Virus record (IMG/VR): IMGVR_UViG_3300003702_000001
Span: 2,160-66,159 of that record
Source of the DNA: a virus
Taxonomy: Duplodnaviria; Caudoviricetes
Length of the DNA: 64,000 bases
Reading direction: 5' to 3' (one strand)
Notes under the pieces: generated by a model
The model's database searches: none
What the model saw: only the letters and a program-made list of their open reading frames with translations
What the model was told of the DNA's origin: nothing
Translations under genes and position numbers: made by a program
Part shown: piece after piece, positions 2,192 through 50,324 of the stretch
Numbering within the stretch: position 1 is the stretch's first letter
Layout: each line of letters starts with the position of its first letter

Positions 2192-3637
2192 TTAAAAATT
2201 TAACCCCATAAGGCCCGTATTTGACCCACTGAGGGCTATCTGAGGCTCTTCAAAGATTCCGAGGTCATCAAGTAGTATAAATGTCTCGGAGGCCGTCTGT
2301 GTGGCCGCATTTGCTAATGCAAGGCCCATTACTAAGTCATCATGTGCCCCAACCCCTTCAAATCTTCCTGATTCAGTAATAGTGAACATAGATAATTCCT
2401 CTATTAACGCCGTAGTCATCGCTTTACTGTTATTATCTCCATAAGGGAAATTTAATTTACCATTTTCTATGTTCATCTGTAAGTTAAGGATAATTTCTTG
2501 CTTATTCTTTCTAGTAGTATTGAAATCTTTAATATTTAAGTCAGTCATGCTCCTTAACTCTTGTGTAAATGCCTTTGCGAAGGTGTTTGTCTCATATAAG
2601 ACTATTTCGGGTTGGAATAACTTACCTATGAGTCTAATCTTTTCAATATTCTCTCTAAACTCCACATTTTTTGCCCTATCTACATGAACAATAGTTTTAT
2701 TCTTCTCTTCATCTACTTCCAAGACCATAATTACATTATAATCTCCATCTGTAGAGATAGCAGGGTCAACACCAACATAATATTTATAACCTTTATCTAT
2801 TCGATTACCTAATTTAAGTACATAGTCCTTATTTTTACATTTATCTACATATTCATGGTCAAAGAGAGCAGTTCCAGTTGAAACAGGTATGCATAGATAC
2901 TCTCTTGTGAATTTCAGTGACCCTATCTCAGATTTTCTTTGCATAAGTGCATCATAACCCCATCTATCAGCCCACAGTGGTTCATTTAAAGAATTAAGAC
3001 AAGGATATTTCCTTACAGTATATGCCTCATTTTCTTCTAGTAAAGAAAAAATATCTGTATAAGTAAAAGGAGTTCCTATCATTCTTAGATTAGCAGTATG
3101 ATGCAGAGTAGGAATCATATCTCCAAAGAACCAATCTGTAACTTTCTGTATTGCTGATAAACTAAACTCTTTCAAAGGGTCATCAATAATAATCTCTTGA
3201 GGGTGAAGTCCACGAATCTGAGAACCAATTGAACGCTCTAGAACAGCATTACCATTAGTAAGTTGCATATTACCTATTGCCCATCCTCTCTTCGGTTTAT
3301 ATTTCTTCAATGCAGGAAGACCAAAGACTCTATCTATTTCCCTCATATGTACTAAAGTCTGCTTTTGGTTAGATGAAATATATAGCATTTGAAATGGAGG
3401 TTCTTGAAACACTAAGTTCCAAACTACCCATGAATGCATGAAAACTGATTTGCCGTGGTCTCTTGCACAAACAATAACTGTTCTATCTGTATTTTGCATA
3501 GTTTCGTGCCACTCTTGCATATACTCTGGATATAATAGTCCCAATACATTCTTAAAGAAATAGGGGAAAGAATTTCTAGATAATTCCATGTCCATATTAG
3601 ACACAAAATCAAGTTGTTCTACTTCCACTCTAAACAC
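2192..3637 (-). CDS. terL: Terminase large subunit
   Basis: Walker A CARDHGKS, Walker B IIIDDP, IGTP coupling motif, nuclease VGVDPA and HDDLVM motifs. Confidence 0.95.
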   Translation of the reverse strand: MFRVEVEQLDFVSNMDMELSRNSFPYFFKNVLGLLYPEYMQEWHETMQNTDRTVIVCARDHGKSVFMHSWVVWNLVFQEPPFQMLYISSNQKQTLVHMREIDRVFGLPALKKYKPKRGWAIGNMQLTNGNAVLERSIGSQIRGLHPQEIIIDDPLKEFSLSAIQKVTDWFFGDMIPTLHHTANLRMIGTPFTYTDIFSLLEENEAYTVRKYPCLNSLNEPLWADRWGYDALMQRKSEIGSLKFTREYLCIPVSTGTALFDHEYVDKCKNKDYVLKLGNRIDKGYKYYVGVDPAISTDGDYNVIMVLEVDEEKNKTIVHVDRAKNVEFRENIEKIRLIGKLFQPEIVLYETNTFAKAFTQELRSMTDLNIKDFNTTRKNKQEIILNLQMNIENGKLNFPYGDNNSKAMTTALIEELSMFTITESGRFEGVGAHDDLVMGLALANAATQTASETFILLDDLGIFEEPQIALSGSNTGLMGLNF

Positions 3638-4190
3638 CCTTTATAGTTATCCACCATTTAGAACCAATATATTTCTGTAAAGTCCCTACATTACCACTGG
3701 CTTCTGCAATTGATAATTCATCTAATATATCTTCAGGAATATCTTCTTGTTTAATTGGATGAAAACCTTTTGCTGTATAATGTCTCATTGCACTCCTACT
3801 AGTAAAAGAAGCCAATAATGTTCTATCACCTTTCTCTTTAATAAGTTTATCTATTAATAATCCTACTGCACCTTTTTTTCTATCGCTTTGTCTATATCCT
3901 TCTCTCACATGTATGCCTGAACCTAATAAAAATCCCTTATGTTCTGCAAATCCTAACACACCAATAGGTTTATTTCCTTGCTTCAAATACATAACCCAAT
4001 GATTAGAAGGTTTTGTAGCAAACAACCCAGTCTTAGGTAATCTCTTGTATCTTTGCTGTCTAGTTTGCCATTTAGTATATCCATCCTCTCTAAATACTCT
4101 TATAGATTCTTCTTCCGACATAGCCTTGAAATAAACATCATTCCATGTATAATCATTTTCTGGTGGGAAAGGATAGTCTTCTTTAACCAT
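3630..4190 (-). CDS. GNAT-family acetyltransferase
   Basis: PIGVLGF...GIHVREGYRQ..KGAVGLL (motif A-like) and AMRHYTAKGF (motif B-like). Confidence 0.65.
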   Translation of the reverse strand: MVKEDYPFPPENDYTWNDVYFKAMSEEESIRVFREDGYTKWQTRQQRYKRLPKTGLFATKPSNHWVMYLKQGNKPIGVLGFAEHKGFLLGSGIHVREGYRQSDRKKGAVGLLIDKLIKEKGDRTLLASFTSRSAMRHYTAKGFHPIKQEDIPEDILDELSIAEASGNVGTLQKYIGSKWWITIKGV

Positions 4191-14906: not shown

Positions 14907-15742
14907 AATAAATTCTTCCCCCCATGAGAATCAATATATTCCTTAAATTTAGAACTTGTTTCATACAATTCCCAAGACCGATTAGAATCCCAATCACTAT
15001 CCAAGTTTTTGTTTATTACTTCTCTCATCAAAACAAAGATTCCACCCGAAGAACCTAAATTATGATTAAGAACCCTATCAATTGTGTTCGAGGGCGATAG
15101 ATTATATTCTTCTTCAAATAATCGTTCATACTCAAGTCTAGCCATTTCTTTAGTCATCAGGCTATCGGTTTGGTTTGCATGAAACTGCGACACTTCTCCC
15201 TTCCAAATACCTAATCCTGATTTATTATTCATAGCAGAATCATAATGCCAATAATCTCTAGGTATTGGAGCAGCAGTTATCATGTTACGATACCCATTTC
15301 CTTGCCATGTTGCTATATCATACCAATTTTTAGGTAAATCTTCCCTCCAAGATGAAACGGGTGCAATATAAATGAAACCTATCCTTTCATCATGTGCCTT
15401 TAACATGAAATCATCTACATCTTTACTTGCCAACATTTTTTCCTCTATTTGTTTTGGTAATTTCTTACCTAGTTTTTTCTCCATAGCCGCTATATGTTCT
15501 TGTATTGATGGTGCATCATTACGACCACTAACACCTCTAACCTTTATTGGAATCAAAGTTTTAACATGGAATGCAGGACTACCTAGAAAATTTGGAAATG
15601 GATAATGCTTCTCCATCACTTGTTCAGCACTATTCTGTCTAGGGTCATAAAGTAAAATAGTGCCATTACCAATATTCTCTTTTTTCAAAATATTGGGCCA
15701 AGCAAGTATTTTACCTTGCTTAACAATCGCCCACCAACTCAT
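14903..15742 (-). CDS. Hypothetical protein with QGKIL leader on an unrelated body
   Basis: MSWWAIVKQGKIL from the ATG at 15742; the Cys motifs of paralogs 1-3 are absent. Confidence 0.8.
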   Translation of the reverse strand: MSWWAIVKQGKILAWPNILKKENIGNGTILLYDPRQNSAEQVMEKHYPFPNFLGSPAFHVKTLIPIKVRGVSGRNDAPSIQEHIAAMEKKLGKKLPKQIEEKMLASKDVDDFMLKAHDERIGFIYIAPVSSWREDLPKNWYDIATWQGNGYRNMITAAPIPRDYWHYDSAMNNKSGLGIWKGEVSQFHANQTDSLMTKEMARLEYERLFEEEYNLSPSNTIDRVLNHNLGSSGGIFVLMREVINKNLDSDWDSNRSWELYETSSKFKEYIDSHGGKNLL

Positions 15743-16101
15743 ATTCCAAACCACTCCAATATTTTAGGCCAATATTTACTTAGAGTTTGATTTGTCTCTA
15801 CATTCCATGCAATTTGTATCTTATCCAACAATGCTTTTATCTCATCTTGTTCATGTTGTTCATCAAGTGCTTCTATATTGCCTTCTTTCTTCATTTCATT
15901 AAATGCTATAGAGGCTAGAGCCTTAAAATTCCTAGGAGTATATTTCATCGTAGATAATTTGAGTAATGTCTTTAATAATTTCTGATAAGTGTCTGATTGA
16001 ACAAAATTCTTTCCCTGTTCGTAATCCCACCTACGAAGTTTATCTAAGAATGTAGGTTTAAGTACATCTTTGTACTTAATTATCGTCCACCAATCACTCA
16101 T
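15739..16101 (-). CDS. Hypothetical protein with MSDWWTIIK leader
   Basis: ORF track; first gene of the leftward block. Confidence 0.75.
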   Translation of the reverse strand: MSDWWTIIKYKDVLKPTFLDKLRRWDYEQGKNFVQSDTYQKLLKTLLKLSTMKYTPRNFKALASIAFNEMKKEGNIEALDEQHEQDEIKALLDKIQIAWNVETNQTLSKYWPKILEWFGI

Positions 16102-16878
16102 GGTCTAAACTTCCCCCAAGCCCATATACCCCAAATCACTTCTATTACTGTTTTTATCGGATTATTAAAATGATACCACTGTGTCTGCATAATTCCACAG
16201 GTTTAACTTATTACTCCCTTAAAAAACTGAATTTTGAACTGGCATTTTTTTGTTACTTGCGTTTATTTTTTTTATTGTTTAGTTCTATTCCCAGAATAAG
16301 AATGCGCTAGTTATAATTAACTATCCTAGATACAAACACATGCCATTGCTTGTATATATGGCGCGATTTTATTTATTGTTTATTTATATTTATGTAGGCT
16401 GACTTTGGCTTCGCTATATACAATAGACGCACACGCTTAGTAGAGATAAAGGCTACTGACCGTTGGATTAATTATTTATGCCATAAAATTAATTACGCGA
16501 TACAAAAAAAAATTAAGCCCTGCTACGCACCCATTCCCCAATACCTCCCATATGGTTGTGCTTTGACTACTACCCTATCTTCTTTAAAGAATTAGATGGA
16601 TTTTCGGCAACAGGGACTAAATCTTCGTTAATATGTCTACTAAACTAGTATTTCACTCACTATCTACTACATTAGTATGTTGCTTACTTATCCTGTTATG
16701 GGTGGCTAGCCATGCATCGCATAAGGAATTGTATTTGGGTCGCTGTTTTAGGGCATTGCCGTGCCAGTACTATTGACCAATGGTCAAATCGCTTTATATG
16801 GTGTTACTGGCGTATTTCTCACCAAACCCTATTCAAAAGGTGTTGCAGCACCATATGAAATTGCCTCACCAAATGAAT

Positions 16879-17064
16879 CTAACTTAAGTCCATTTCTCTA
16901 AATGCACTCAAGGCTGCTTGTAATGCTGATAATGCTGTAGTTAAATCATCATCTGCAACTCTTAATCTCTTAATTATCAGCACATGATTAGAACCAGACT
17001 TAGAATGTCCTACTTCTAACATGTATTTGTATCTCTCACCTACTATTACTTCTGTTTCCTTCAT
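16879..17064 (-). CDS. Small hypothetical protein
   Basis: ORF track; coupled to the upstream ORF. Confidence 0.6.
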   Translation of the reverse strand: MKETEVIVGERYKYMLEVGHSKSGSNHVLIIKRLRVADDDLTTALSALQAALSAFREMDLS

Positions 17065-17255
17065 TCACTTCCCTTTCCTATTACCTGTCTATCAAGTTTA
17101 GTCTCATGTCGTCGTCTAAACAGTTCTTCATTGAAATTATCATTAGTTGGATGTAATATAACTATTAAGTTGTTCGTTTGTGACTCTGAAAACCTCAATG
17201 TAATCATCATATTAACAAACCATTCAAAATGTCTCTTCGTAAATAGATTAGTCAT
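17061..17255 (-). CDS. Small hypothetical protein
   Basis: ORF track; ATGA overlaps. Confidence 0.6.
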   Translation of the reverse strand: MTNLFTKRHFEWFVNMMITLRFSESQTNNLIVILHPTNDNFNEELFRRRHETKLDRQVIGKGSE

Positions 17256-17371
17256 GCGTTTTCCTCCAATATCCTTATTTCATTTCGTAGTTGCTCATTT
17301 TCCTTAATCAATTTAGCCTTCTCTCGCTTGAGTCTTCGATAACCATACTTAAATTTAAGTTCTAAGTTCAT
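17252..17371 (-). CDS. Small coiled-coil protein, 39 aa (MNLELKFKYGYRRLKREKAKLIKENEQLRNEIRILEENA)
   Basis: Translated by hand; ATGA overlaps on both sides. Confidence 0.6.
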   Translation of the reverse strand: MNLELKFKYGYRRLKREKAKLIKENEQLRNEIRILEENA

Positions 17372-18114
17372 TCATCTTCACCCTTATTTCTAGCGGCTAA
17401 TCTTGCTTCTCTTGTCTTAGCAATAATGTCAGGTGTGCATTCTGACCTTGATTCTGTCTTAGCATCAAAGAAACATTCAATAATTGGTTCTCCGATAGAT
17501 GTATAATTACGCATTACATTTTCTACAATGTATTGAATACTTCCTATATCTGGAAGGGGTGTATTAACACACATCTCTTCTATAACTCTCTTAGTTTGAA
17601 CTCCATCAGTCTCCCATCTAATAATGAACTTCAATTCAACCTCGATATTACTCTTATTAGTCAAAGTAGTAACCATAGTTACATCTTCATTAATTGGATA
17701 GTGTAATTCAGGAGTTACACCTATTTTCTGTATTCCTACTAGGTCTTCATAATTAAGAAGGAAATATTCTCCTGATGGAGTAACCCACTTCGTTTCTGTA
17801 GTAACAGTGGTGTCTTGTATTCTTTCTATCTCAAAATTAGTGTTTTCCTTTAGTTGGTTAATCATCTTAGTGGCGTCTGTTGAGTATTGAGTAGTTAAAG
17901 CGCGCTGTCCATCTATAACAATAGTATATATTGTAGATTCACTATCTATAGTTCTATTACCATACATACCAGCATTAATATCAGTACTCCATTTATATCT
18001 ACTAACAAAATTCATTCCTTGGTCATGAAGGTCACTAGAAACCATTGCCCATTCTTTAGGAGACAAAGCGATATCATAATTCATTGCCATTGTTCTTTCA
18101 TATATTACACTCAT
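17368..18114 (-). CDS. Hypothetical protein (248 aa), probable early gene
   Basis: ORF track; directly downstream of a 55-nt promoter element. Confidence 0.8.
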   Translation of the reverse strand: MSVIYERTMAMNYDIALSPKEWAMVSSDLHDQGMNFVSRYKWSTDINAGMYGNRTIDSESTIYTIVIDGQRALTTQYSTDATKMINQLKENTNFEIERIQDTTVTTETKWVTPSGEYFLLNYEDLVGIQKIGVTPELHYPINEDVTMVTTLTNKSNIEVELKFIIRWETDGVQTKRVIEEMCVNTPLPDIGSIQYIVENVMRNYTSIGEPIIECFFDAKTESRSECTPDIIAKTREARLAARNKGEDE

Positions 18115-18119
18115 ACAAT

Positions 18120-18174
18120 ACTAACGGGGTGGGGGGGTTATATCAAAGGTAGTAGTCAAAGCACTACCATATGG
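18120..18174 (-). promoter_or_regulatory. 55-nt promoter-like element, copy A
   Basis: Minus strand: CCATATGG-TAGT-GCTTTG-ACTACTA-CCTTTGATATAACCCCCCCACCCC-GTTAGT. Confidence 0.7.
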
Positions 18175-18258
18175 TTGTAAGTGGCTTTGCAGATATAACC
18201 TCATAAAACGACCAATTAAGGCCGAATTATGTTGTAGTGGGGGCTAAATCCACTACGC

Positions 18259-18834
18259 TTACTCTGAATCCTCCACGACTATGTTGCATACAAGTGCAAC
18301 CGGACTCTCGCCGTCCCATGAATACGGTGCATCATCGTTATCTTCTGTTGAAGCCTTGTATGCGGCATTCAACATCAAACGGCGTGACTTTGTGGCATCA
18401 TCAGCGAAATCCTCTGCTGTATCATAATTACCACCGCCAGATTTACCGTGTCTGTTCTCTAGTGTCTGAACTGCTTCGCTCTCATCAAAGAGAGAAACCA
18501 TCGCGGCATGATATGCCAAGAGAATACCATCTCTCGCAACTATCACCGTTTCAGGCATTGAAGACCCACGACCAGCCCTAAACGGCTTATCGCTTATATC
18601 TCCGAAGCAAGTCCTAATTGCCGCATAAAGCGACTTTCTTGAATCAGGCTTAGCGTCACCAGCCGCAACTAACTGCGGTACTGCTAACAGAGCAATATGC
18701 TCATCAGCCCAATCGGGATGTGTATCAAACCATCCATCAATTAGCGTCTTCTTTCCATTCCATGTCTCATCATCCATACTATTGTCTACCATTTCTTTCA
18801 CTTCCTTTATTCTCCTGTAGTGTATTAACCCCAC
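18259..18834 (-). CDS. GDAKPD-family protein A (GC-richer)
   Basis: Paralog of 19196..19711; true start may be MVDNSMD. Confidence 0.8.
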   Translation of the reverse strand: MGLIHYRRIKEVKEMVDNSMDDETWNGKKTLIDGWFDTHPDWADEHIALLAVPQLVAAGDAKPDSRKSLYAAIRTCFGDISDKPFRAGRGSSMPETVIVARDGILLAYHAAMVSLFDESEAVQTLENRHGKSGGGNYDTAEDFADDATKSRRLMLNAAYKASTEDNDDAPYSWDGESPVALVCNIVVEDSE

Positions 18835-18842
18835 ACTACATG

Positions 18843-18897
18843 ACTAACATATTATAGGGGTGATATAAAGGTGTATTGCAAAGCACACACCATATGG
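18843..18897 (-). promoter_or_regulatory. 55-nt promoter-like element, copy B
   Basis: Minus strand: CCATATGG-TGTGT-GCTTTG-CAATACA-CCTTTATATCACCCCTATAATAT-GTTAGT. Confidence 0.7.
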
Positions 18898-19093
18898 TTG
18901 TGTTCATTCTTTTATTCTTTTTATTGAGTTTGTAACTCAGAGGCGGGGCCGTGACTACAGGGAGTTACAATATAAGCATAGGTAATCAAGTAGGAGAAAT
19001 TCGCCCTTTTCTCTTCCGTCTATTACATTCGCTCAGAAAAAAACCGCCTTGGCTCAATCACACAACTTTACAACTTTCCAACATTCCAACATA

Positions 19094-19148
19094 CCATATG
19101 GTTTTGCTTTGCATAGAACCCTTCATATACCCCCACGCCACCGTTAGT
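19094..19148 (+). promoter_or_regulatory. 55-nt promoter-like element, copy C
   Basis: CCATATGG-TTTT-GCTTTG-CATAGAA-CCCTTCATATACCCCCACGCCACC-GTTAGT. Confidence 0.7.
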
Positions 19149-19195
19149 AATGCCCCCCAAGGCGGTTAGTCTAACTAATCAACTAAGGTGATATA

Positions 19196-19711
19196 ATGGT
19201 AGAAACATGGAATGACACGAAATTGAAAGTAAATACAATGATAGATGCAGATGAAGCGGGAACTATTGATGAGTCCCTGCGAGTCGTCTGTGGTCATTTG
19301 ATTGCTACTGGTGATGCAAAGCCAGATATGCAACTTCAGATGACTAAGAGCCTAAAGGAAGTCCTAAGAGGACAAAACGGTTATCCGTGGAGAAGGGGCG
19401 GAGGCGGGATTCTTTCCGCTACTGCGCTAAGTGTCGTTGATTCGATATGCTCTGAGGCCGCTAGTTCTTTTGCTACTGCATTCGATGAATGTGGTTCAGG
19501 TATTCGCGCTCTATTAACCCCACATGGTAAGAGTAAGAAGAACTCCTATGCTGATGGTGCTGATTTCGGTCAGTATATCGCTAAGAGTGTTCGGAAGACT
19601 GCTACCTCTCTCTTCAAGGAAGAAATCTGGGACGGAACAATGGATGGCCTAAATGATGCTATCATTCCAGATGAACCCGACGAAGATGATTCATCGGAGG
19701 ATTCTGAGTAG
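19196..19711 (+). CDS. GDAKPD-family protein B (GC-richer)
   Basis: AAGGTGA SD-like sequence; paralog of 18259..18834. Confidence 0.85.
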   Translation: MVETWNDTKLKVNTMIDADEAGTIDESLRVVCGHLIATGDAKPDMQLQMTKSLKEVLRGQNGYPWRRGGGGILSATALSVVDSICSEAASSFATAFDECGSGIRALLTPHGKSKKNSYADGADFGQYIAKSVRKTATSLFKEEIWDGTMDGLNDAIIPDEPDEDDSSEDSE

Positions 19712-20125
19712 TTGTGATTAGCCGTCTTGAGGGGCCACTGGGGGTATGGAGAATAAACACTCCATGCCCCCTTTTTTAATTGATTTTGGATGGTATATCT
19801 CACAAAGTAAAGAACAACCATATGGAGTGGTATTAACGCTTTTTAGATTCAGGTATTGGCTCGGTACGCTACCTCTTATATAACCCCCTCCGGCAGTTAG
19901 TAATAGAAGTCTCCCAATCACCTTTCAACTGTAAGAAGAACCTAATCTCCTTATCAATACACACCATTCAAAGGATGAATCTTTTCCCTCCTTACACAGC
20001 ACTCAAACTAACACTCACACTCAAAGAAACAAATAGATAATATATCTTATATTCTATAACAATATCAGTATGGTATATCCTATATAGTATATGATAACTA
20101 CAATCAGAAGTGATTCAAAATGGCT

Positions 20126-20400
20126 AACATTCTCACTTTCCACCATACGAGAAAGAAGAGGTCAGACAGAATGGGTCAGATAAGGGAGGATATGTATATC
20201 AATATATATAACATTCTTTATTCTTATACTTCTACTACTTACTTACTACTACCCCCCCCTCTCTCTCTTCTCTCTCTCTCTTAGGGGGCTGGAAACGAGA
20301 GAAATGAGAAAAGATGAACATGTTGCATATAATGGTACAGATATACTATGATATGTAGGGCAAAATAACATTCTCAAAGATTGGAAACGATTGGAAAAGA
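20126..20400. other. Origin-like low-complexity region with short repeats
   Basis: ~60-nt pyrimidine-rich tract at 20221-20282; AACATTCT x3; TGGAAA(C/A)GA x3; lies near the strand switch. Confidence 0.35.
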
Positions 20401-20424
20401 TAATAATTTACAATAGGTGATAAA

Positions 20425-21015
20425 ATGAGCAATAGAAAATGGAAGAAATGGACAGATGCAGAAATAAAAAGACTGATTAAGTATTGGGAATCGGGAATAA
20501 AAGTAAAGGAAATTCAAAGAGTATTTTCTAAGACTAGAACTGCTAGTGCAGTTTCAATAAGAATCCATGAACTGCAAAGAGCAGGGAAGATTAAAAATAG
20601 GAATGTTCTTAAAGATAAGGCTTTGAAAAAATCAAAGAAATATAAACAAAGTAATTGGAATACACCTTATACTCCTGAGTGGGTTAAAGCAGGTAAGCAG
20701 GCAATGATGGGACAACCCCCATCAAAGACACAAAGTGTTGTAGCGAGTAATACACCTCACAAGAACATTAGACTTAAATGTGATGAGATTAAAAAAATGC
20801 TTCAAACAAAGAACACTCAGTATGGTGATTCTGCATTAAACCCAATAAGGGTCTTTTCTAAAGCAGATGCAACAGAGCAACTCAAAGTCAGAATAGATGA
20901 TAAATTAAGTCGTCTAGTTCGTGGCAATGATTCAATAGAATCAGATGAAGATGTAGTCAGGGACTTGATAGGTTACTTGGTTCTTCTTCTCATACAATAT
21001 GATACTCAATCCTAA
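20425..21015 (+). CDS. Myb/HTH-like domain fused to a DUF1599-like (MazG-superfamily) domain
   Basis: N-terminal KWTDAEIKRL...RTASAVSIR; C-terminal KNTQYGDS...VRIDDKLSRL...DLIGYLVL. Confidence 0.7.
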   Translation: MSNRKWKKWTDAEIKRLIKYWESGIKVKEIQRVFSKTRTASAVSIRIHELQRAGKIKNRNVLKDKALKKSKKYKQSNWNTPYTPEWVKAGKQAMMGQPPSKTQSVVASNTPHKNIRLKCDEIKKMLQTKNTQYGDSALNPIRVFSKADATEQLKVRIDDKLSRLVRGNDSIESDEDVVRDLIGYLVLLLIQYDTQS

Positions 21016-21730
21016 GTAGGGGAAAATGTTTAGGTTTGTTAAATAAGGTTTGGTGAAATAAAAAGGGATAGAGATATAGGAGTTATGAAGTAACCTGATA
21101 ATCATAGGACTCTCCGGTATAAATAATAGAGTAGTTATGTTGCTTCTGTAAAACAAGTATTCTTAGTATGCGAATCCCCTCGTTTATTAATACTATATTA
21201 ATATGATAATACTTCTTCGTCACGCATGGGCACAGCACCAATTCCTTCCTTAAATATAAACTCAAACTATTGGGAGTTTCAAAGCAGCCGATAGTCGAGA
21301 TAGGTTTACAAATAATAACTAGAAAAGTTTGTTATATGCATCATTGCAATAATAAGTATAATACTGTCGTTGGTATGAACTAGTTCCCTATCGAATTCAA
21401 CTCATGAAGGAGAGAGGCGGGAGAATATGGTAAAAAGTCTTAACTTCCCCGTTCCATTGCAGCCATATGCGTAATTGGTGTTCCTCTCTTCTTCCACATT
21501 AAACTCATCTTTATGATGATGTAAGGTTTGTATAAATAAAAAGGATATAGTCTCTTCTTAATAGTCATTCATAGTGACTAATACATCGGGGTTTTAGTAG
21601 TGTCCTCGCATCCTTCCTTATTCATCAAGAACAACTTTGTAACTTAGGCCCTGTCGGATGGCAGAGCCTAAAACCTGTCAATTTTGACATGTCCCAATCC
21701 TCACTAGTTCGATATTTTTAGATTAATTAT

Positions 21731-21817
21731 TGCGAGGTTCCCAAGTATGGTCAAAGGGGCCGGACTTAAGATTCGGTGCGTAGTGCTTCATGGGTTCAAA
21801 TCCCATCCTCGCAACCA
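21731..21817 (+). tRNA. tRNA-Leu (anticodon TAA), CCA encoded
   Basis: Acceptor stem TGCGAGG/CCTCGCA; D-loop with GG; anticodon arm CCGGA-CTTAAGA-TTCGG; long variable arm; T-arm ATGGG-TTCAAAT-CCCAT; discriminator A plus CCA. Confidence 0.95.
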
Positions 21818-21837
21818 ATTCACATACGGTGATAAAT

Positions 21838-22386
21838 ATGAGTAGAGCAGGTAAGAAATGGATATTAAAATATCCAAGAATAAAGTTTGCCGCTAAATTA
21901 TCATTTGAAATAGCATTTAGTACTCTTAATAAACGAAGACCCTTTACTTGGATTGATGTATATGATTGGGATTTGTTTTGGAATTTTTACTATGCCGCAC
22001 ATCTCTTAGATGATAAATTTAGTATAGAAGAATTATCTTACCCAGATAGTTATGGTAAGAGTCAAAATACATTGAAACAGCATTTTCATTATGTTAAATC
22101 AAACTCAACTGCTATCAAGAAAGTTTATGATATACTTCTAAAAGAAAAGGTAGAAGAAGGACTACTCTTTAAAGGCCAATTTCAAGACCATTCTAGGACA
22201 CGAAGATATAGAACCCCAAAGGGAGCATTAATAGAAGATGGCATGAAATTCTATAATTTCAAAGAATTCCCCGGCTTTCCGAAAAAGTCCCGTATTTATC
22301 GTGACTTAACTTTAATATGCATATTATGTGGGGAACAAATGGCCGGACATGTTAAAGCCAAAAAGTATTGTGACAAATGTAAGTAG
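21838..22386 (+). CDS. Hypothetical protein with C-terminal CxxC...CxxC
   Basis: Start reset to MSRAGK (GGTGA SD); the track start overlaps the tRNA. Confidence 0.7.
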   Translation: MSRAGKKWILKYPRIKFAAKLSFEIAFSTLNKRRPFTWIDVYDWDLFWNFYYAAHLLDDKFSIEELSYPDSYGKSQNTLKQHFHYVKSNSTAIKKVYDILLKEKVEEGLLFKGQFQDHSRTRRYRTPKGALIEDGMKFYNFKEFPGFPKKSRIYRDLTLICILCGEQMAGHVKAKKYCDKCK

Positions 22387-22395
22387 TGAATTAAT

Positions 22396-22692
22396 ATGAA
22401 TGAAGATGAAAGAATTATGAGAAATCTAATGGATATGCAACACCACTTTAATGAGATGGTTTCAGCATATGAAAGACTTCCTTCTCTAAAGAATCCAATA
22501 AGAAAGACTATTCTTGAAGATGCTTTATCTGTAATTGCAGTATCTATGGAAGGCATCACTCATGAGATTGCTGATTTATATAACTTAGTGCCTTTTCAAC
22601 ACTGGTCTAGTGATGAACCACTTGATTTATCAGTAGAAAATAGAACAATAATAGAAATTAAAAGTAGAAACCCAAGGAGAGAAGAAGAATGA
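22396..22692 (+). CDS. Hypothetical protein
   Basis: ORF track. Confidence 0.65.
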   Translation: MNEDERIMRNLMDMQHHFNEMVSAYERLPSLKNPIRKTILEDALSVIAVSMEGITHEIADLYNLVPFQHWSSDEPLDLSVENRTIIEIKSRNPRREEE

Positions 22693-29839: not shown

Positions 29840-31143
29840 TTAAAATGAAAGTAAAAATATTAATCCCCACGCCTGATGATTCTAGGCACAAATATTCAAC
29901 GAGTTTTTTGTTCAGAACTACAAACACAATGTATAGTTATAAAACCAGATTAAATAAGTTTGGAGAATATGTTATCGGTATAGAATCTGTAGATAGATAC
30001 AAAGATTCTTTAGACCCAACTTATTCTGTTATTGAAGATGCTTTAAAAGTTCATTTGTTTCCAACACATTTAAGATGGAATAATTCATCAGATAACATGA
30101 CAGGAATCCTAACTTTTAGATATAAAGATGGCGACTCAACTGTAGTATTTCAAAAGAGTAAACCCCACTTCTTTTTAAATGGGGCTAGACAGAATAAATC
30201 TATTGTATTAGGAAATATAGCAAGGATTATATTTCGTTCTTGCTTTGAGAGAAGCAGTAGAACTATGGACAAATATATAAGTAGACTATTACTGTTTCCT
30301 CCTAATGTTACTCATGCTATAGAAAATAGAACCTCCTATAATTTTTGGTTAGAAGGTAAAAAATATGAAGTTAGATTAACTACGAAACCTATTTCAGATG
30401 TTGAGTGTGCATTAGAAATATCTGATGGTATATGGGCTCCTATAAAAGTAAATGATTTAAATGGGTTTATTAATTTCCATAGATTTGATAAAAGAAGGTC
30501 ACAAAGATGGGGAATATCTCCTAAATATTTATGGGCTAATTTAATTGGTAGCCCACCAACAATGGCACAAGAGAAATTAATGATAGAATTTCTTAAACAA
30601 AATAGAACTCAAGACATTGTAGAAGATAGAGCAAACCAACTTCTTTCAGAATTAGAAGAAGAATATCCTAATAGAATTATAATGTTCGATTTCCCTGCGG
30701 TCAAAGCAAGGGACAAAGATAAGAATTCTACAGATGAATCTTTACAGGCCATGTTTGTTCGTGGTAAAATATGTGATTGGATTATTATTGATAACCAATA
30801 TAAAAGTAATATCCAAAGAGTTTCTACTTATTTGTATCTCACCATAGATAATGGTAATGGTAGAGCAGGTAGAGAAAGAATACCTTTTGATGATGGACAT
30901 TTAGTTGGCCCGATTTGCATAGATAATATTCATCGTAATTCTAGTAAAGGTGACCAATTTGCCGCAAGAGCAATGGCACTACTAAATGATAGTATGACTG
31001 TGGCAATGGTTCATACAATTAAATCGTATATTCCTCAAGATATTTTAGACAGAAAAATAGAGTGCAGAATAAATTCATTGTACCCGAAAGGAATGAAAAT
31101 AAAAAATGGTGATAATAATGATAGAAGTATGTTGGGAATGTAA
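29827..31143 (+). CDS. Hypothetical protein with candidate C-terminal E2/UBC-like domain
   Basis: GPICIDNI...ALLND resembles the UBC catalytic segment GxICLDIL...SLLxD; HPN motif absent. Confidence 0.5.
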   Translation: MEEVIKMKVKILIPTPDDSRHKYSTSFLFRTTNTMYSYKTRLNKFGEYVIGIESVDRYKDSLDPTYSVIEDALKVHLFPTHLRWNNSSDNMTGILTFRYKDGDSTVVFQKSKPHFFLNGARQNKSIVLGNIARIIFRSCFERSSRTMDKYISRLLLFPPNVTHAIENRTSYNFWLEGKKYEVRLTTKPISDVECALEISDGIWAPIKVNDLNGFINFHRFDKRRSQRWGISPKYLWANLIGSPPTMAQEKLMIEFLKQNRTQDIVEDRANQLLSELEEEYPNRIIMFDFPAVKARDKDKNSTDESLQAMFVRGKICDWIIIDNQYKSNIQRVSTYLYLTIDNGNGRAGRERIPFDDGHLVGPICIDNIHRNSSKGDQFAARAMALLNDSMTVAMVHTIKSYIPQDILDRKIECRINSLYPKGMKIKNGDNNDRSMLGM

Positions 31144-32017
31144 ATCAACAAGTATAACTTACGAAGAAAGATTAGGCGAAACAATCTGTGATACATGTGG
31201 TTTAGTTTTAGTTCAGAATGCCTTGGAAGAAACAATATCCCTTCCATTGGCTGAAAAGAAGACTGCTAACTATTTAGGAAGAACAAACTCTTCCTTTAAT
31301 TTAGGGTCAATGATATTTATATCAGACTTAAACTCTAAGAAATCAAGAACTTTGTACAATACTCAAAGATGGAATCAGATAGAATCTCCTAGTGATAAGA
31401 AAATGATAAAACTATGTAATATGGCTCTATCTAATTATAATGTTCAATATGAAATTAAAGCGCGAGTTCCTCGTTACTATAAGATACTTCAAGGAAAATA
31501 TGCTTTGAGGGGAGTATCACTTGATATTAGGGCGGCGGCTCTAACTTATTATATTGTTAAAGAAATAGGTATTGCTACTACCATAAAAAGACATGCTCAC
31601 TACACTAGGGTCACTGAAAAGGAAATTTCAAAGAACGCTAAAGTAATAGCAACAATTCTAGGCAAGCCTTGGATATTTGCTCAAGTTAATGTTGAGGGTT
31701 TAGTAGATAATGTAGGTCATAATTTATCTTGTACGGATTCAGAATACCTTGGTAATGTTAAAATACTAGCCCACCAAGTAAATGAGATATTAGATATACA
31801 TTGTGAAAGACTTACTGCCGCATATTTAGCGGCATGTTTTTATTTAGTTTCTATCTTTCAAAGAAAACGATATTCTCAGGTGCGACTTGCTCGCGCTAGT
31901 GGAACAACAGAAGTATCATTAAGAAGTAACATGAAGAAATTACTAATTAAATATGGCACTAAAAAGGAAAGATTATACTATCTAACCCTAGAAGAATTTA
32001 TGGATGGAGTAAGATGA
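31106..32017 (+). CDS. tfb: Transcription initiation factor IIB (TFB) homolog
   Basis: Zn ribbon CWEC...GETICDTCGLV; two cyclin-like repeats (AAALTY, AACFYL, TTEVSLR). Confidence 0.85.
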   Translation: MVIIMIEVCWECKSTSITYEERLGETICDTCGLVLVQNALEETISLPLAEKKTANYLGRTNSSFNLGSMIFISDLNSKKSRTLYNTQRWNQIESPSDKKMIKLCNMALSNYNVQYEIKARVPRYYKILQGKYALRGVSLDIRAAALTYYIVKEIGIATTIKRHAHYTRVTEKEISKNAKVIATILGKPWIFAQVNVEGLVDNVGHNLSCTDSEYLGNVKILAHQVNEILDIHCERLTAAYLAACFYLVSIFQRKRYSQVRLARASGTTEVSLRSNMKKLLIKYGTKKERLYYLTLEEFMDGVR

Positions 32018-43570: not shown

Positions 43571-45322
43571 ATGATAATCTCACAGGCTAGTAATGGAATC
43601 TCTTTATCATGGAGAGATTATGACCCCGATACAGGGGAACAAAATGCTAGATGGTCTAAATTTATTAAATATGAAGATTTCCCACCTTTCTTTTTTGTTG
43701 GAGAATCTGAACATATGCCTGAGAATTTTATAACAACTAACCGTTGGGGTAAATCTACTATAATAGAAGTTAAATATGAGGAAGGAGATTATGTTAATCT
43801 ACAAAGAGAGAAATTAATAAAAGTTCTTTGTAAATATCCATCTCAAATACCCCTAGTAAGAAAGGAATTTATACAAACATATGAAGCAGATGTTCTCTAT
43901 ACTCATAGATATGCTATTGAAGAAATAGATGAAATGCCAGAGTATAATTTAAAGAAATGGTATTGGGATATTGAATGGCAACAGGGTGGAAAACATGATG
44001 GTGCTATAACTTGTATCGTTGTGTTTGATAATTATCTTGGTGAATTTTATAGATGGTCATGGCTACCAGAAGACTTAACTAATGTAGATACTGATTCATA
44101 TGAATATGATAAGTATGGAAAGTTACATGCCAAAACTAAGACAAGTGACCATAAAACTTCTACAGGAGATATATTTAAAATAAGAGATTTTACTTATCCC
44201 AAAGAAATACAGATGTTATCTGCATTTATATCTGAATGTTTAATCCAAGACCCCGACATGTTAATTTCTTGGTTTGGTAATAAATTCGACTTACCAAAAG
44301 TATTGGAAAGATGTGTTGTAAATAAATTAGATGCAAGATTACTTTCTCCTATTTTTGAAGTGGATGGATTCATTCAAAAGAATAATGAATATATATTTAG
44401 AAAATCTTCATTTAATTCTATTGAACAACCTATCAAGGGAAGAATATGTCTTAGTTTAGATTTAGCCTTTGAAAGACAATGGAATGATGCTCAGAAAGGA
44501 ACCTTACCTTCTTTGGCTTTAGATTATGTATCTGATTTGGTTCTTGGTGAAAAGAAATTAGTTAGTAAAAAATTTCCTGATAAACAAGATTTCTTTAGAA
44601 GAGCATGGGAAGAGGATAATGAAACATATTTAGAGTATGCTTTAACAGATGTAGATTTGATTCGTAGATTAGATGAAGAAAATTATTTATCTGAAGCGAT
44701 TATATCATTACAACGATTACTTAAAGCACCATTTGAAGCATGTTTTTATGCTAGTCATATGGGTAGTATCTATTTTATGAGACATGCTTGGTGGAAAGCC
44801 CCCACTAGAGATGAGGGACCAAAGACTAGTTATCAAGGAGCAATGATATTTGACCCATTGATAGAAAAAACTAATGGATTACATATAGGTGTGGCGGCTT
44901 TTGATTTTGCAGGTCTTTATCCATCAGTTTGTGTAGCAAGGAATATTAGTTGGGAAACTAAAAGCGATGAACCAACTAAGTTTGCAGTTAATATAGCAAT
45001 ACCAAGAGATTTCTCAGAAATTACTAAGAAAGAAATGCTATATTATAAAACTGATAAACTAGGAGTCTTACCTAAAGCAGTAATTGAACTTAATAGTTTG
45101 AGAACAGATTATAAAAATAAGATGAAAAAAGCAAAGAGCCAAAGAGAATATAATAAATGGTTCAACAATCAAATGGCTGTTAAAAGATTGAGGGCATCTT
45201 TTTATGGTATTATTGGTTATCAAGGATTTGGTTGGGCAGATAGAGATTTAGCCGCATCAATAACAGCAAGTGCTAGAGAAGCAATCAGAGAAGCCACCCT
45301 CACAGCGAGGAAGATAGTATGA
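43571..45322 (+). CDS. polB: Family B DNA polymerase, N-terminal part (exonuclease, motifs A and B)
   Basis: WDIE, NKFDL, YALTD; DFAGLYPS; KRLRASFYG; stops before motif C. Confidence 0.92.
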   Translation: MIISQASNGISLSWRDYDPDTGEQNARWSKFIKYEDFPPFFFVGESEHMPENFITTNRWGKSTIIEVKYEEGDYVNLQREKLIKVLCKYPSQIPLVRKEFIQTYEADVLYTHRYAIEEIDEMPEYNLKKWYWDIEWQQGGKHDGAITCIVVFDNYLGEFYRWSWLPEDLTNVDTDSYEYDKYGKLHAKTKTSDHKTSTGDIFKIRDFTYPKEIQMLSAFISECLIQDPDMLISWFGNKFDLPKVLERCVVNKLDARLLSPIFEVDGFIQKNNEYIFRKSSFNSIEQPIKGRICLSLDLAFERQWNDAQKGTLPSLALDYVSDLVLGEKKLVSKKFPDKQDFFRRAWEEDNETYLEYALTDVDLIRRLDEENYLSEAIISLQRLLKAPFEACFYASHMGSIYFMRHAWWKAPTRDEGPKTSYQGAMIFDPLIEKTNGLHIGVAAFDFAGLYPSVCVARNISWETKSDEPTKFAVNIAIPRDFSEITKKEMLYYKTDKLGVLPKAVIELNSLRTDYKNKMKKAKSQREYNKWFNNQMAVKRLRASFYGIIGYQGFGWADRDLAASITASAREAIREATLTARKIV

Positions 45323-45928: not shown

Positions 45929-46026
45929 TGATAAATTATTGTAGTTGCCAATTTAATAGAGGTACTAGAAGTATAACTAAAAAAGGATGTTGTGCTTATT
46001 GTGGATTAGAGGTGGATGAAAGATGA
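45925..46026 (+). CDS. 33-aa Cys-rich peptide
   Basis: Translated by hand: MMINYCSCQ...GCCAYCG...; its stop overlaps the polB C-half ATG. Confidence 0.45.
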   Translation: MMINYCSCQFNRGTRSITKKGCCAYCGLEVDER

Positions 46027-46907
46027 AAGTAGTTTATGGTCATACTGATTCTATTTATGTTAAAATAGATTCTATAAAGAAGGCAAAGTCTATAGTAAAA
46101 ATAATTAATAATCATGTTAGAAGTAAATTCCCTAATGTTATGGGTTTAGAAGAGCATCCTATTAATCTAGAGTTTGAGAAATACTTTGAGAGTTTGGGGG
46201 TAGGAGCAACTAAGAATAGAAATGCAGGTTTAATTACTTGGAAGGATGGTAATTTTCTTATAGATAATGAATTTTTTATGACAGGTTTTACTGCTAAAAG
46301 AATATCAGAAACTTCTCTTGCGAAAGAAGTACAAATTAAAGTATTGAATATGTGGGTTGAACAAAAAACTAATGAAGATATACTGGAATATCTCACAGAT
46401 ATTTATCAAACTACTCTTAATGGTAATATACCATTAAAAAAGATTCTAAAAAGAAGTAGATATAAAGAAGAAAGATTTCATGTATATTGCCAATCATGTA
46501 AGAAAGCATATTATTTAACTGATACCAAATGTAATCATACCTTAACTACTTCGGAAAAGAGAGGTAGGGGTTGGGTATCAGCCGGGAAAAGACCATCAAT
46601 AGGTTCAGGAATAGTAGGTGTTTTAATGTATAATAAACTAAATAAGGAACCAATTAATGATACTTATTTATTTATGAAAATAAAAAATAGTATTCATACT
46701 ATAACCCATCCTATAAATAATATGTTGTTCAATCCTACTTACATGGCTGGTCTAGTAGAAGAAGATTTCAAAGATTTTACTCCTGATTGGGAACACTATG
46801 CACAATCAATAGTTAAAAAAGCAACTCCCATATTCAATGCTATGGAATGGGACATATATGATATTACAAAAGATGCAAGTCAAACATCTTTAGATGAGTG
46901 GTGGTAA
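46023..46907 (+). CDS. polB: Family B DNA polymerase, C-terminal part (motif C, thumb)
   Basis: MKVVYGHTDSIYV, LEFEK, KNRNAG, TGF..KR. Confidence 0.9.
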   Translation: MKVVYGHTDSIYVKIDSIKKAKSIVKIINNHVRSKFPNVMGLEEHPINLEFEKYFESLGVGATKNRNAGLITWKDGNFLIDNEFFMTGFTAKRISETSLAKEVQIKVLNMWVEQKTNEDILEYLTDIYQTTLNGNIPLKKILKRSRYKEERFHVYCQSCKKAYYLTDTKCNHTLTTSEKRGRGWVSAGKRPSIGSGIVGVLMYNKLNKEPINDTYLFMKIKNSIHTITHPINNMLFNPTYMAGLVEEDFKDFTPDWEHYAQSIVKKATPIFNAMEWDIYDITKDASQTSLDEWW

Positions 46908-47082
46908 AATAATGGGCCGCGTGAAAACCCCAAGTTGCCAGAAATGCGACACCAAAATGACGAGAATCTATGTTCGGCCAACAGGTATCAAGATGTATTG
47001 CCCGGTTGGTTTCGTTTGTATATGTGGGGGAACGATTTACGAATGGCCCACCAATATCAGAAAATGGATGGAAGGACGGTAA
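46894..47082 (+). CDS. Small Zn-ribbon protein
   Basis: CQKC...CPVGFVCICG. Confidence 0.5.
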   Translation: MSGGKIMGRVKTPSCQKCDTKMTRIYVRPTGIKMYCPVGFVCICGGTIYEWPTNIRKWMEGR

Positions 47083-47086
47083 TAGA

Positions 47087-47953
47087 ATGAGAGAATACAC
47101 ATACGAATGGAATGCTTCATCCTATGAAGACGAAGATAAACCGATATTGAAAATAACTAAGTCATCCTTTGGTTCATATCAATGGTGTCCTAAGAGATAT
47201 GAATTTCAATATCCTCAACATATGCCAATAGATACAACAGAACTTATGATTAAGGGAACTGTAGTTCATAATAGTAGGCAGAGTTTCTTTGAACTTTTTG
47301 ATGTTAAAAAAGCAGAAGATTTATCTCATAGTGAATTACAAGATTATTGTATGAGTTTATATCCTATTGATGATTATTCAGATATGTATCATATTATGGG
47401 CGTAAATGATGCTAATAGATTTATGACTGCTAAGACACATAATGCTACAGAAGATTATTTGCCTGTAATCAATGAAGTGTTATTAGACGCAGAAATAGTT
47501 ATTGATAGAAATACTCACAAAGATTTTCCACTTAGACAAAATTATAGAGTTCATTTACAAGGAATTATTGATAGGATGTTTTTAGAAGAAGGAGGTTATA
47601 TTCCTATGGAATTAAAAACTGGCCCTTGGAAGGATTGGAAAACAACTATGATGAGAAAGGAGATGGCTTTCTATCAATTACTTGTAGAAAATTGTCCTGA
47701 TGAAATGCTCATAGAAAATGGAATAGACCCTGAAATTAAGATAACACATTGGGGTTGGTATTATCCTGCTTCTAATTTAACCTATATAGAAGAAATTAAG
47801 AAAACTAGCATGAATGCTGTATTAAAAGGAATGGCCAAGATATTATTCTCATATGAAGAAGAATTATTCCCTGCTAAATTTTATGCAAAAACATGTGTGC
47901 ATTGTAGTTTCTATAGTATATGTGATGTAGCACAATCGGATGGGTGGGTATAA
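47087..47953 (+). CDS. Cas4/RecB-like PD-(D/E)xK exonuclease with four Cys
   Basis: WCPKRY, GIIDRM, ELKTG, CVHCSFYSIC; start reset to MREYTY. Confidence 0.85.
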   Translation: MREYTYEWNASSYEDEDKPILKITKSSFGSYQWCPKRYEFQYPQHMPIDTTELMIKGTVVHNSRQSFFELFDVKKAEDLSHSELQDYCMSLYPIDDYSDMYHIMGVNDANRFMTAKTHNATEDYLPVINEVLLDAEIVIDRNTHKDFPLRQNYRVHLQGIIDRMFLEEGGYIPMELKTGPWKDWKTTMMRKEMAFYQLLVENCPDEMLIENGIDPEIKITHWGWYYPASNLTYIEEIKKTSMNAVLKGMAKILFSYEEELFPAKFYAKTCVHCSFYSICDVAQSDGWV

Positions 47954-49608: not shown

Positions 49609-50324
49609 AATTAAGTATAGATAGCAGAGAACACTCTAAACTTTCTGAAGCAGTAGAAAAAGAAGCATTAGGTATGAATATTCCAATAGAAAAATTATGG
49701 TTAGAGATAGGAGATTATGTTTTTGACGATGTTTGTTTTGAGGCCAAGTCCTCTTTTGATTTTCTTCAATCGGTTATGAATAAGAGATTATGGAATCAAC
49801 TAGACAACATGGATAGGGCTTATAACAATAATAATGTAATAATATATGGAACTTTAAATTCTGCTATCACTCAGTATATGAAAAATATTAAAGTAACCCC
49901 GAAATGGAAACCACAAAACACAGACTCATTGCAAAGAAAATTATATTTCCATAATAAATTCATGGGTGCTATAGGAAGAATCATTTTAGATACCGATTGT
50001 AATTTGATATTAACCTCTAATGAAAAGATAGCCGCAAAGGTAATCTGTTCTGTATTCAAAATGAAACCAATAGATAGAGAAGTCTATCAACCTAGGCTAA
50101 TTAAACAGAAGAAAATTAGCACATCAGATTTAAGAGTAGATGTTCTTATGACTATTAAGGGCATTAGTGAACAGAAGGCAACATTACTAATACAAGAGTT
50201 TGGTTCCATTATGGAACTAGGAGAATCCTCAGTTAGCGAATTATGCAAACTGAAAGGAGTGGGGGAAACTTTAGCCAATAGACTTTTGAACACTCTAAAT
50301 TCTGAGGATAAACAGGTGATATAA
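49605..50324 (+). CDS. ERCC4/XPF (Hef-like) nuclease with HhH motifs
   Basis: IDSRE, IGDY, FEAK; IKGISE and LKGVGE HhH motifs. Confidence 0.88.
   Translation: MKLSIDSREHSKLSEAVEKEALGMNIPIEKLWLEIGDYVFDDVCFEAKSSFDFLQSVMNKRLWNQLDNMDRAYNNNNVIIYGTLNSAITQYMKNIKVTPKWKPQNTDSLQRKLYFHNKFMGAIGRIILDTDCNLILTSNEKIAAKVICSVFKMKPIDREVYQPRLIKQKKISTSDLRVDVLMTIKGISEQKATLLIQEFGSIMELGESSVSELCKLKGVGETLANRLLNTLNSEDKQVI

Follow-up and report, generated by a model that had tools for sequence, protein, structure and literature searches.

The 64,000 nucleotides (nt) analysed here (positions 2,160 to 66,159 of IMG/VR virus record IMGVR_UViG_3300003702_000001, hereafter the window) raise a simple question: why are all five copies of the palindromic core CCATATGG packed into 3.3 kb (16548-19825), when 1.2 copies are expected and none of 100 shuffled sequences reaches five? 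The clustering extends to the surroundings of the core, since CCATATGG-N3-10-GCTTTG is also found five times against an expectation of 0.00. A sequence-only reading had taken these repeats for a family of early promoters of fixed length, 55 nt, with the palindrome as the site of an activator. Our analysis makes it probable that the repeats are clade-specific promoter cassettes of magrovirus-type viruses, which double as junctions for the shuffling of genes. In the surface ocean, magroviruses rank among the most abundant viruses; they infect uncultured Poseidoniales, and as far as the papers on them could be searched, neither promoters nor palindromes are mentioned. Each cassette would consist of the palindrome WACCATATGGTW, a stem-loop (GGTnnn...nnnACC around RC-TTT-GY) on one or both of its sides and a TATA-like box directly after the ACC. 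Transcription, by the RNA polymerase of the host, would begin some 27 nt past the ACC. This start would coincide with the first letter of the ATG, giving a leaderless mRNA (as for the gene p248), or lie about 45-75 nt before an ATG that is preceded by a Shine-Dalgarno-like motif (as for p177 and p171). Such cassettes would stand at nearly every gene boundary of a variable block of small genes, at the strand switch between the structural and the replication arm of the genome. Because the same sequence recurs at each boundary, they could also act as junctions at which relatives would have gained, lost and moved gene units.

The sites of the window are as follows.

16504..16547, minus strand: conserved flank to the left of site D, in which the minus strand has a run of nine T (T9) at 16504-16512; 84-87% identity to the related loci L010 and L024 over ~50 nt.
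16548..16590, plus strand: site D, with the core CCATATGG at 16548-16555, the stem-loop GGTTGT-GCTTTG-ACTACTACC extending to 16574 and a weak TATA-like TTTAAAG at 16583-16589.
18120..18174, minus strand: copy A, with the core at 18167-18174, the stem GGTAGT/ACTACC around GCTTTG, ACC at 18150-18148, the TATA-like box TTTGATATAA at 18147-18138, a C-run and GTTAGT at 18125-18120.
18167..18208, plus strand: opposite arm of site A, CCATATGG-N9-GCTTTG-N7-AACC-TCATAAAA, facing the 3′ end of p177, with no gene after it.
18843..18897, minus strand: copy B, with the core at 18890-18897, the stem GGTGT/ACACC around GCTTTG, ACC at 18872-18870, the TATA-like box TTTATATCA at 18869-18861 and GTTAGT at 18848-18843.
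19094..19148, plus strand: copy C, with the core at 19094-19101, the stem GGTT/AACC (plus one T.G) around GCTTTG, ACC at 19118-19120, the TATA-like box TTCATATA at 19122-19129 and GTTAGT at 19143-19148.
19803..19901, plus strand: copy E, with the core at 19818-19825, ACTTTG on its left arm at 19803-19808(-), a set-back ACC at 19871-19873, the TATA-like box CTTATATAA at 19875-19883 and GTTAGT at 19896-19901.

Read directly, copies A, B and C each span exactly 55 nt in the order CCATATGG-N4/5-GCTTTG-N7-CC-TATA-like-C-rich-GTTAGT, and the ATGs of p248 (18114), p177 (18792) and p171 (19196) follow them after 5, 50 and 47 nt. The three full copies and their placement upstream of genes, both claimed by the sequence-only reading, are thus borne out, and so are the two partial copies that it had recognised. 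One of these, site D, is complementary to copy A at 26 of 27 nt (96%) over 16548-16574, in inverted orientation; it points rightwards to a region with no conserved open reading frame (ORF), the p47 frame found there (16633-16776) being without homologue in the fetched loci described below. In the other, copy E, the palindrome stands 53 nt before ACC-TCTTATATAA-CCCCC...GTTAGT, a layout that is kept in L010, L013 and L014. A hairpin bridging the palindrome and the TATA box was considered for such set-back copies and rejected, as fold energies were no better than shuffled in 6 of 7 loci. The window therewith holds four promoter cores, A, B, C and E. RCTTTG-N5-9-ACC is present on six of the ten arms that flank the five cores, two of the six being the opposite arm at site A (18167) and the arm to the left of the copy E core (19818), and some of the window sites are therefore two-sided; the opposite arm of A could be a weak or antisense promoter, or a relic.

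Is the element a peculiarity of this genome? In five IMG/VR contigs encoding a DUF1599-like gene, which in the window lies to the right of the cluster, 6-12 copies of CCATATGG stand just upstream of that gene. Four whole related contigs (58-96 kb) have all their copies (12, 6, 8 and 11) in a single stretch of 3-5 kb, with none for the reversed control. To avoid any bias for the motif, 80 loci were fetched through the neighbouring DUF1599-like protein alone: 31 of them carry 4-16 copies, all upstream of that gene, and control palindromes of the same composition average 0-0.6 per locus over the 80 loci. Scans of viral contigs with the single proteins p248 and p171 gave no matches, relatives being reached through the DUF1599-like gene. 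A two-sided pattern, CAAAGY-N2-8-ACCATATGGT-N2-8-RCTTTG, recovers at least 119 stretches in IMG/VR viral contigs. By comparison, 596 Gb of cellular sequence (one genome per prokaryotic species) yield eight single matches and one contig with four, for an estimated chance level of about 7. The exceptional contig, L091 (NZ_NZTP01000027.1, 14.7 kb), is filed under a flavobacterial metagenome-assembled genome (MAG) of Altibacter sp.; besides its four two-sided matches it has seven cores and homologues of p248, p171 and p177, and it is probably a magrovirus-type contig binned into that MAG by mistake. Given the abundance in viral contigs and the chance-level cellular matches, the element belongs to a virus clade and not to host genomes; it is a hallmark of one magrovirus clade. 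The sequence-only reading had suggested looking for the motif both in related viruses and in Poseidoniales hosts: among the viruses it is conserved clade-wide, and no cellular genome has the two-sided form beyond chance.

Variants of the arrangement occur among the relatives. In another lineage (L001 1-4700; L003; L044 1340-3850; L083 1690-3110) many cores lack a promoter arm and are separated by ORF-free units of 100-350 nt with hairpins that have CTAAG or TTAAG loops, often followed by CTAARYGT. These units may constitute an array of small RNAs or of binding platforms. CTAARYGT is a motif of that lineage and is at chance level in the window, where it is found once (16433-16440(-)). In L005 (2220-2423, equal to L017 3220-3423), three cores lie ~100 nt apart and the units between them carry ACCCTCCTGCGG, whose opposite strand is a strong Shine-Dalgarno motif before mini-ORFs of 6-7 codons (MFFDDDE, MFDCDD).

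The core WACCATATGGTW is a palindrome of 10-12 bp, an A occupying -1 and a T occupying +8 in 90% of 429 arms. In a full arm it is followed by 3-6 variable nt, RCTTTG, 3-8 variable nt, ACC and the TATA-like box, and such an arm may be present on one side of the core or on both. The two variable spacers turn out to be complementary to each other: GGTnnn pairs with nnnACC, and an RC/GY pair closes a loop of TTT. Complementarity within arms amounts to 4.47, compared with 3.37±0.06 when halves are re-paired between arms. Under a strict rule, in which pairs are contiguous from the base of the stem and bulges are disallowed, the Watson-Crick pairs beyond GGT/ACC number 1.53 against 0.49±0.03, and they are made of 27 different three-letter stem words. 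Among 33 arms picked by promoter criteria only, RNAalifold and pair counting give 88.3% of cells paired (78.6±1.6 when shuffled; at most 48% in slid controls) and a covariation score of 0.205 versus 0.078, neither the pairing nor the covariation value being reached in any of 500 shuffles. The stems are short and fold at -4.9 kcal/mol on average, versus -2.5 for shuffled sequences. On the outward strand G.T is tolerated more than A.C (cis versus re-paired, 0.115 and 0.090 for G.T, 0.078 and 0.037 for A.C), a weak hint that it is this strand that folds, as RNA or as single-stranded DNA.

The outer part of the arm is tightly linked to gene starts. Of 1177 distinct arms taken from 122 loci, 361 are full, and for these the position of the first ATG with an ORF of 40 codons or more behind it has a sharp maximum at 26-31 nt past the ACC (93 arms); no peak is seen for arms lacking the motif. 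Half of the sites have a complete promoter arm on one side or both, at a constant distance from an ATG. Per locus, there is a median of 6 sites over 3.6 kb. Two classes can be distinguished.

ATG 25-31 nt after ACC, 100 arms: leaderless class, T/A-rich at -27..-22 and C-rich at -30..-28, with a pyrimidine at -1 in 93% and a Shine-Dalgarno-like motif in 6%.
ATG 45-95 nt after ACC, 83 arms: long-leader class, with a Shine-Dalgarno-like motif in 73%.

In the first class, taking the A of the ATG as +1, a TATA box is present at -27..-22 (T.51, A.63, T.56, A.57), to be compared with the boxes TTTGATATAA, TTTATATCA, TTCATATA and CTTATATAA of the window copies, and the pyrimidine at -1 is a C or T, as for an initiator. 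Since Shine-Dalgarno-like motifs are rare there and a pyrimidine occupies -1, the class fits the signature of leaderless archaeal mRNAs that would begin with the A of the ATG. At -30..-28, where the ACC closes the stem, 54-65% of arms have a C, and no purine-rich B recognition element (BRE) is found. Carried over to the window, this geometry predicts starts at 18114-18116(-) for copy A, at or 2 nt before the ATG (a leaderless mRNA or a 2-nt leader); at the A at 18841(-) for copy B, with a leader of ~49 nt that has GGAAGTGA before the ATG; at 19149-19152(+) for copy C, where AAGGTGAT lies 4 nt 5′ of the p171 ATG; and at 19902-19903(+) for copy E.

The sequence-only reading is thereby retained in part. 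Archaeal-type promoters agree with the TATA-like box after the ACC, the accumulation of ATGs at 26-31 nt, the pyrimidine at -1 and the scarcity of Shine-Dalgarno-like motifs. Transcription start sites had been expected near GTTAGT, which fits as well, in that the predicted starts of B, C and E fall 1-2 nt after this sequence and that of A at or 2 nt before the ATG. GTTAGT itself does not qualify as a conserved initiator and was rejected as such, with 45 occurrences in the window and no conservation in relatives; together with the C-run it is specific to the virus of the window and absent from the relatives compared. The claim of fixed length did not survive: from palindrome to ACC the distance ranges over 25-35 nt across relatives, as opposed to a tight 26-30 nt from ACC to ATG, so that 55 nt is a property of this genome rather than of the family. 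For the same reason, a stereospecific activator site is unlikely. The covarying stem-loop, the two-sided sites, the clade-wide conservation and the junction role go beyond what had been noted.

That the cassettes are also junctions is suggested by the comparison of close relatives. Blocks of homology between L001 and L003 end or start 0-2 nt from cores (126|118-125; 3488|3480-3487; 791|782-789; 4098|4100), and a unit of ~350 nt bounded by two cores has moved in this pair, from 445-791 in one to 3452-3788 in the other. Over 89 pairs of loci, 12.2% of the internal ends of high-scoring segment pairs (HSPs) lie at most 3 nt from a core, compared with 2.3% for random positions, a 5-fold enrichment. 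In the window, site D is a fusion: its conserved left flank belongs to one site and its right arm to another, and these two sites lie 20-80 nt apart in L010, L013, L024, L017 and L019. Likewise, the site orthologous to copy A precedes p248 here and a homologue of p61 directly in L013.

Several observations weigh against regarding the repeats as promoter cassettes and junctions. Promoter activity is deduced from position and sequence only. The C-rich BRE position is unlike the A- or purine-rich BRE that is usual in the archaea studied (PMC5316973, PMC11065993), and in many copies the spacing between TATA box and ATG is 2-3 nt shorter than in textbooks. As many as 147 of 683 distinct sites, about one in five, have neither RCTTTG nor TATA on either arm, and in some lineages cores form arrays at 100-150 nt intervals that leave no room for genes; the palindrome must therefore have a role beyond promoters. 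No candidate for a protein binding the palindrome was identified, which, along with the armless sites and the coincidence of sites with the ends of homology blocks, also tells against the proposed activator site; the N-terminal helix-turn-helix (HTH) of p196 was considered as a universal binder and rejected, this HTH being absent in L004 and L005. As to the junctions, 76% of HSP ends lie more than 40 nt from any core, and the homology ends near cores could in part reflect an island of conservation rather than crossover. Anatomy, conservation, covariation, the positional link to gene starts and the breaks of homology at the sites are nevertheless direct observations. A dimeric protein may be at work on the palindrome and the stem-loop, or these may function as a structure of DNA or RNA. 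By analogy with the systems discussed below, the genes behind the cassettes may be expressed early. The cassette may also be linked to the viral TFB, of which a homologue is encoded by all four complete motif-positive contigs and by none of five motif-negative carriers of the DUF1599-like gene, although this is co-occurrence only, because the motif-negative contigs may be other virus groups. The one other hint of such a link is the atypical richness in C at the BRE position.

The same junctions invite another explanation, namely that the palindrome and the twin hairpins beside it serve above all as substrate for a dedicated site- or structure-specific recombination, a cassette exchange like that of integron attC sites or of a shufflon, with the promoters as cargo. 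The twin-hairpin ACCATATGGT sites would then be cruciform or hairpin DNA substrates of an unrecognised viral or host recombination activity, and the stems would serve the folding of DNA and not transcription. The breaks of homology 0-2 nt from an 8-bp core, the transposed unit, the enrichment of HSP ends at cores and the fusion of two neighbouring sites in the window all speak in its favour, as does the covariation of the flanking stems, which is expected of a folded DNA substrate. In addition, identity between copies is often limited to ~10-12 bp, which is short for ordinary homologous recombination, and the virus encodes ERCC4-HhH and PD-(D/E)XK nucleases. On the other hand, Pfam reveals no tyrosine or serine recombinase and no HUH enzyme in the ~60 window ORFs scanned, many of which are orphans of what is only part of the genome; the tight link between ACC, TATA box and ATG argues that the arm is a promoter in its own right; and the promoter-associated stem-loops of T4-type phages behave alike at junctions without a known recombinase (PMC2839356). 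We therefore hold recombination as the primary function, as well as the folding of the sites as its DNA substrates, to be rather improbable. Were it true, abundant archaeal viruses of the ocean would own an integron-like exchange of gene units that bear their own promoters.

Alternatively, the stem-loops may act in RNA: a transcript reading through from the cassette next to it would fold, and the U/A-rich TATA stretch that follows would end or stabilise it, making the element a composite of terminator or insulator and promoter. Such a function is compatible with the promoter cassette favoured here and would agree with the covariation of the stem, with the tolerance of G.T over A.C on the outward strand, with the slightly more stable RNA fold of that strand (-4.9 versus -4.2 kcal/mol for the complement) and with the hairpins of CCCCGAAGGG type, inward reading C(UUCG)G, that are often present on TATA-less arms; in T4-type phages, the equivalent stem-loops are proven terminators (PMC2839356). 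Yet the oligo-U tract of at least 5 with which archaeal transcripts usually terminate is absent after the stem, the centre of two-sided divergent sites is transcribed from neither side and the strand asymmetry is weak (estimated p ~0.02), so that this explanation, too, appears unlikely. Finally, that the cores are iterons of a replication origin or centromere-like (parS/KorB-like) sites for a viral initiator or partition protein, their closeness to promoters being secondary, is highly improbable: the cluster does lie at the cumulative GC skew minimum and strand switch, some relatives have arrays of 3-6 gene-free cores spaced by 100-150 nt and an AT-rich, conserved, ORF-free 0.5 kb follows copy E, but the skew switch coincides with the flip of gene orientation and hence cannot count as a separate line of evidence, the cores are dispersed among genes over 3-5 kb (3.3 kb in the window) instead of forming a compact origin, half of the sites have one or two complete promoter arms at a constant distance from an ATG and Pfam finds no Orc1/Cdc6 or ParB-like gene beside the cluster.

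The setting of the promoter cassettes can be summarised as follows. Up to ~18.9 kb the genes are on the minus strand, a terminase among them. From there on they are on the plus strand, which encodes ribonucleotide reductase, an archaeal-type ATP-dependent ligase, a family-B polymerase and the TFB-like protein (31106-32017), which has the zinc ribbon of TFIIB. The cluster sits at this strand switch, at the minimum of the cumulative GC skew and in a stretch of higher G+C.

16879..18114, minus strand: the p248-p39-p64-p61 operon behind copy A (p248, 17368-18114; p39, 17252-17371; p64, 17061-17255; p61, 16879-17064).
18259..18792, minus strand: p177, behind copy B, a paralogue of p171 (BLASTP E 3e-14) with homologues in 77 loci.
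19196..19711, plus strand: p171, behind copy C, predicted to belong to an all-alpha orphan family, the commonest cargo of these promoters.
19902..20424, plus strand: ORF-poor stretch of ~0.5 kb, conserved at the DNA level, between promoter E and the HTH-DUF1599 gene (20425-21015).

The leftward operon probably ends at the left flank of site D, whose T-run would be its terminator. Among the fetched loci, 37 encode a homologue of p248, 24 one of p64 and 51 one of p61, and the N-terminus MS(V/L)xYERT of p248 is shared with L024. The best-conserved small protein of the block is p61 (16879-17064, -), with up to 71% identity across lineages in those 51 loci; in some relatives its gene directly follows a full promoter arm. 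It is predicted to fold as a beta-hairpin and a helix (beta-beta-alpha; predicted local distance difference test (pLDDT) score 76), and the model has no PDB fold match at E <= 0.001. The 39 codons of p39 (17252-17371, -) encode a basic stretch and then heptad leucines, resembling a mini bZIP, with no homologue among the fetched loci.

Copies B and C diverge towards the paralogues p177 and p171. Their family is large and fast-diverging, with 2-4 paralogues per virus, typically behind these promoters, in 60-77 related loci, and its genes have a G+C content of 0.46 compared with 0.33 for the genome. The p171 model is confidently all-alpha (pLDDT 89.7), and the family matches nothing in the PDB, by fold or by sequence, nor in the Atlas; none of p248, p177, p171, p61 and p64 matches a Pfam or PHROG family. 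Direct reading of the sequence 3′ of p171 reveals a hairpin (19740-19771) followed by a T6 run (19772-19777). No RNA data set was listed for 15500-22500. Two small runs of one study, labelled as metatranscriptomic cDNA and rated as probably DNA, gave contigs covering the body of p177 (18290-18809 and 18371-18812); as contigs they cannot reveal a transcription start, and nothing on expression follows from them.

The stretch between promoter E and the HTH-DUF1599 gene, of which the conserved part is MazG/DUF1599-like, shares 66-70% identity with L010 and L013 and is conserved with L014 as well; some of its blocks are invariant, one part is rich in AT and there is a CT-rich tract. It has no conserved ORF, its p54 frame being without homologue in the fetched loci, and is a candidate for a long leader, a non-coding RNA or an origin-associated region. 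Rfam searches of 15000-22000 and 19850-21760 returned nothing beyond tRNA and chance-level matches. Elsewhere in the window, the family-B DNA polymerase is split into two ORFs (43571-45322 and 46023-46907) that are ~700 nt apart with an ORF of 104 codons between them, and a single open frame of more than 3237 codons at 54119-64000(-) runs off the end, in a part of the window whose G+C content is higher (0.40-0.42) and whose skew is opposite. The ERCC4-HhH (XPF/Hef-like) structure-specific nuclease and the PD-(D/E)XK nuclease are encoded at 49605-50324 and 46970-47953; they are possible players in the rearrangements associated with the palindrome.

For this clade, the promoter cassette gives concrete promoter coordinates and predicted start sites, as well as a sequence tag by which an accessory, probably early and possibly anti-defence gene block could be recognised in metagenome contigs. 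It is also unusual among archaeal promoters, in that a covarying stem occupies the position of the BRE, which is C-rich.

Among described systems, the nearest by analogy appear to be the promoter early stem-loops (PeSLs) of T4-type phages, in which a strong promoter is coupled to a stem-loop between orphan genes and which are junctions of recombination (Arbiol et al. 2010, PMC2839356; Comeau et al. 2014, PMC4122927). Both combine promoter and stem-loop where the small orphan genes of a hyperplastic region adjoin, both provide each gene unit with its own signals and both coincide with the junctions of insertions, deletions and replacements between close relatives. The magrovirus cassette may accordingly be seen as the counterpart, in an archaeal virus, of the PeSL mechanism for shuffling orphan genes. 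It differs in having an archaeal TATA-type promoter, often leaderless, rather than the sigma-70 promoter of a bacterial host, in a virus with a TFB-like gene, a family-B polymerase and an archaeal-type ligase. It also has an additional invariant 10-bp palindrome, with many sites two-sided and divergent, and a stem-loop placed between palindrome and TATA box with its 3′ half in the BRE position. Terminator activity and the formation of mini-circles are features of PeSLs.

A second likeness is offered by crenarchaeal viruses, in which consensus early regulatory sequences specific to each virus precede anti-defence and other early genes, the early expression of which was measured (Nat Commun 2024, PMC11065993). 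There, too, many small orphan genes of a cluster have one shared sequence of the BRE/TATA region in front of them. Its flanks differ from virus to virus, and inverted repeats overlap the BRE in some of these viruses. Those sequences have a strong purine-rich BRE as opposed to the C-rich position found here, and they belong to another host lineage, viruses of Poseidoniales being outside the coverage of that study (PMC11065993). Moreover, the inverted repeat of the magrovirus cassette covaries instead of being fixed, the palindrome is separate and no Aca-like regulator was identified. The closest cellular layout seems to be that of the GvpE-dependent divergent promoters PA/PD of the haloarchaeal gas-vesicle genes, which have a known activator and an upstream activating sequence at fixed distance in a single cellular locus (PMC2241852). 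In both cases, two archaeal promoters that point away from each other have a central element in common, which lies immediately before each BRE; the viral copies, however, number in the hundreds, at variable distance from the TATA box and with no known activator.

Two bacterial systems share single traits with the cassette. The attC cassettes of integrons are promoter-less, depend on a common promoter and lie next to a tyrosine integrase. Like the magrovirus block, they form arrays of small genes parted by imperfect inverted repeats that are conserved in structure and not in sequence, and they are reshuffled at these sites. The viral cassettes differ by supplying a TATA box of their own, at constant spacing to the ATG; no integrase or recombinase family was found in the window ORFs scanned against Pfam (the window being part of the genome) and the R/L box pattern is absent. 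The early-promoter hairpin of phage N4 is read by the virion RNA polymerase and lies in the region of the start site. It likewise has a short stem (5-7 bp) and a 3-nt loop in a repeated early promoter, but in the window the TATA box comes after the stem and no RNA-polymerase family was found by Pfam among the ~60 ORFs scanned. From all of these systems the magrovirus cassette is set apart by its invariant palindrome, its two-sided sites, the covarying stem in the BRE position and its leaderless starts.

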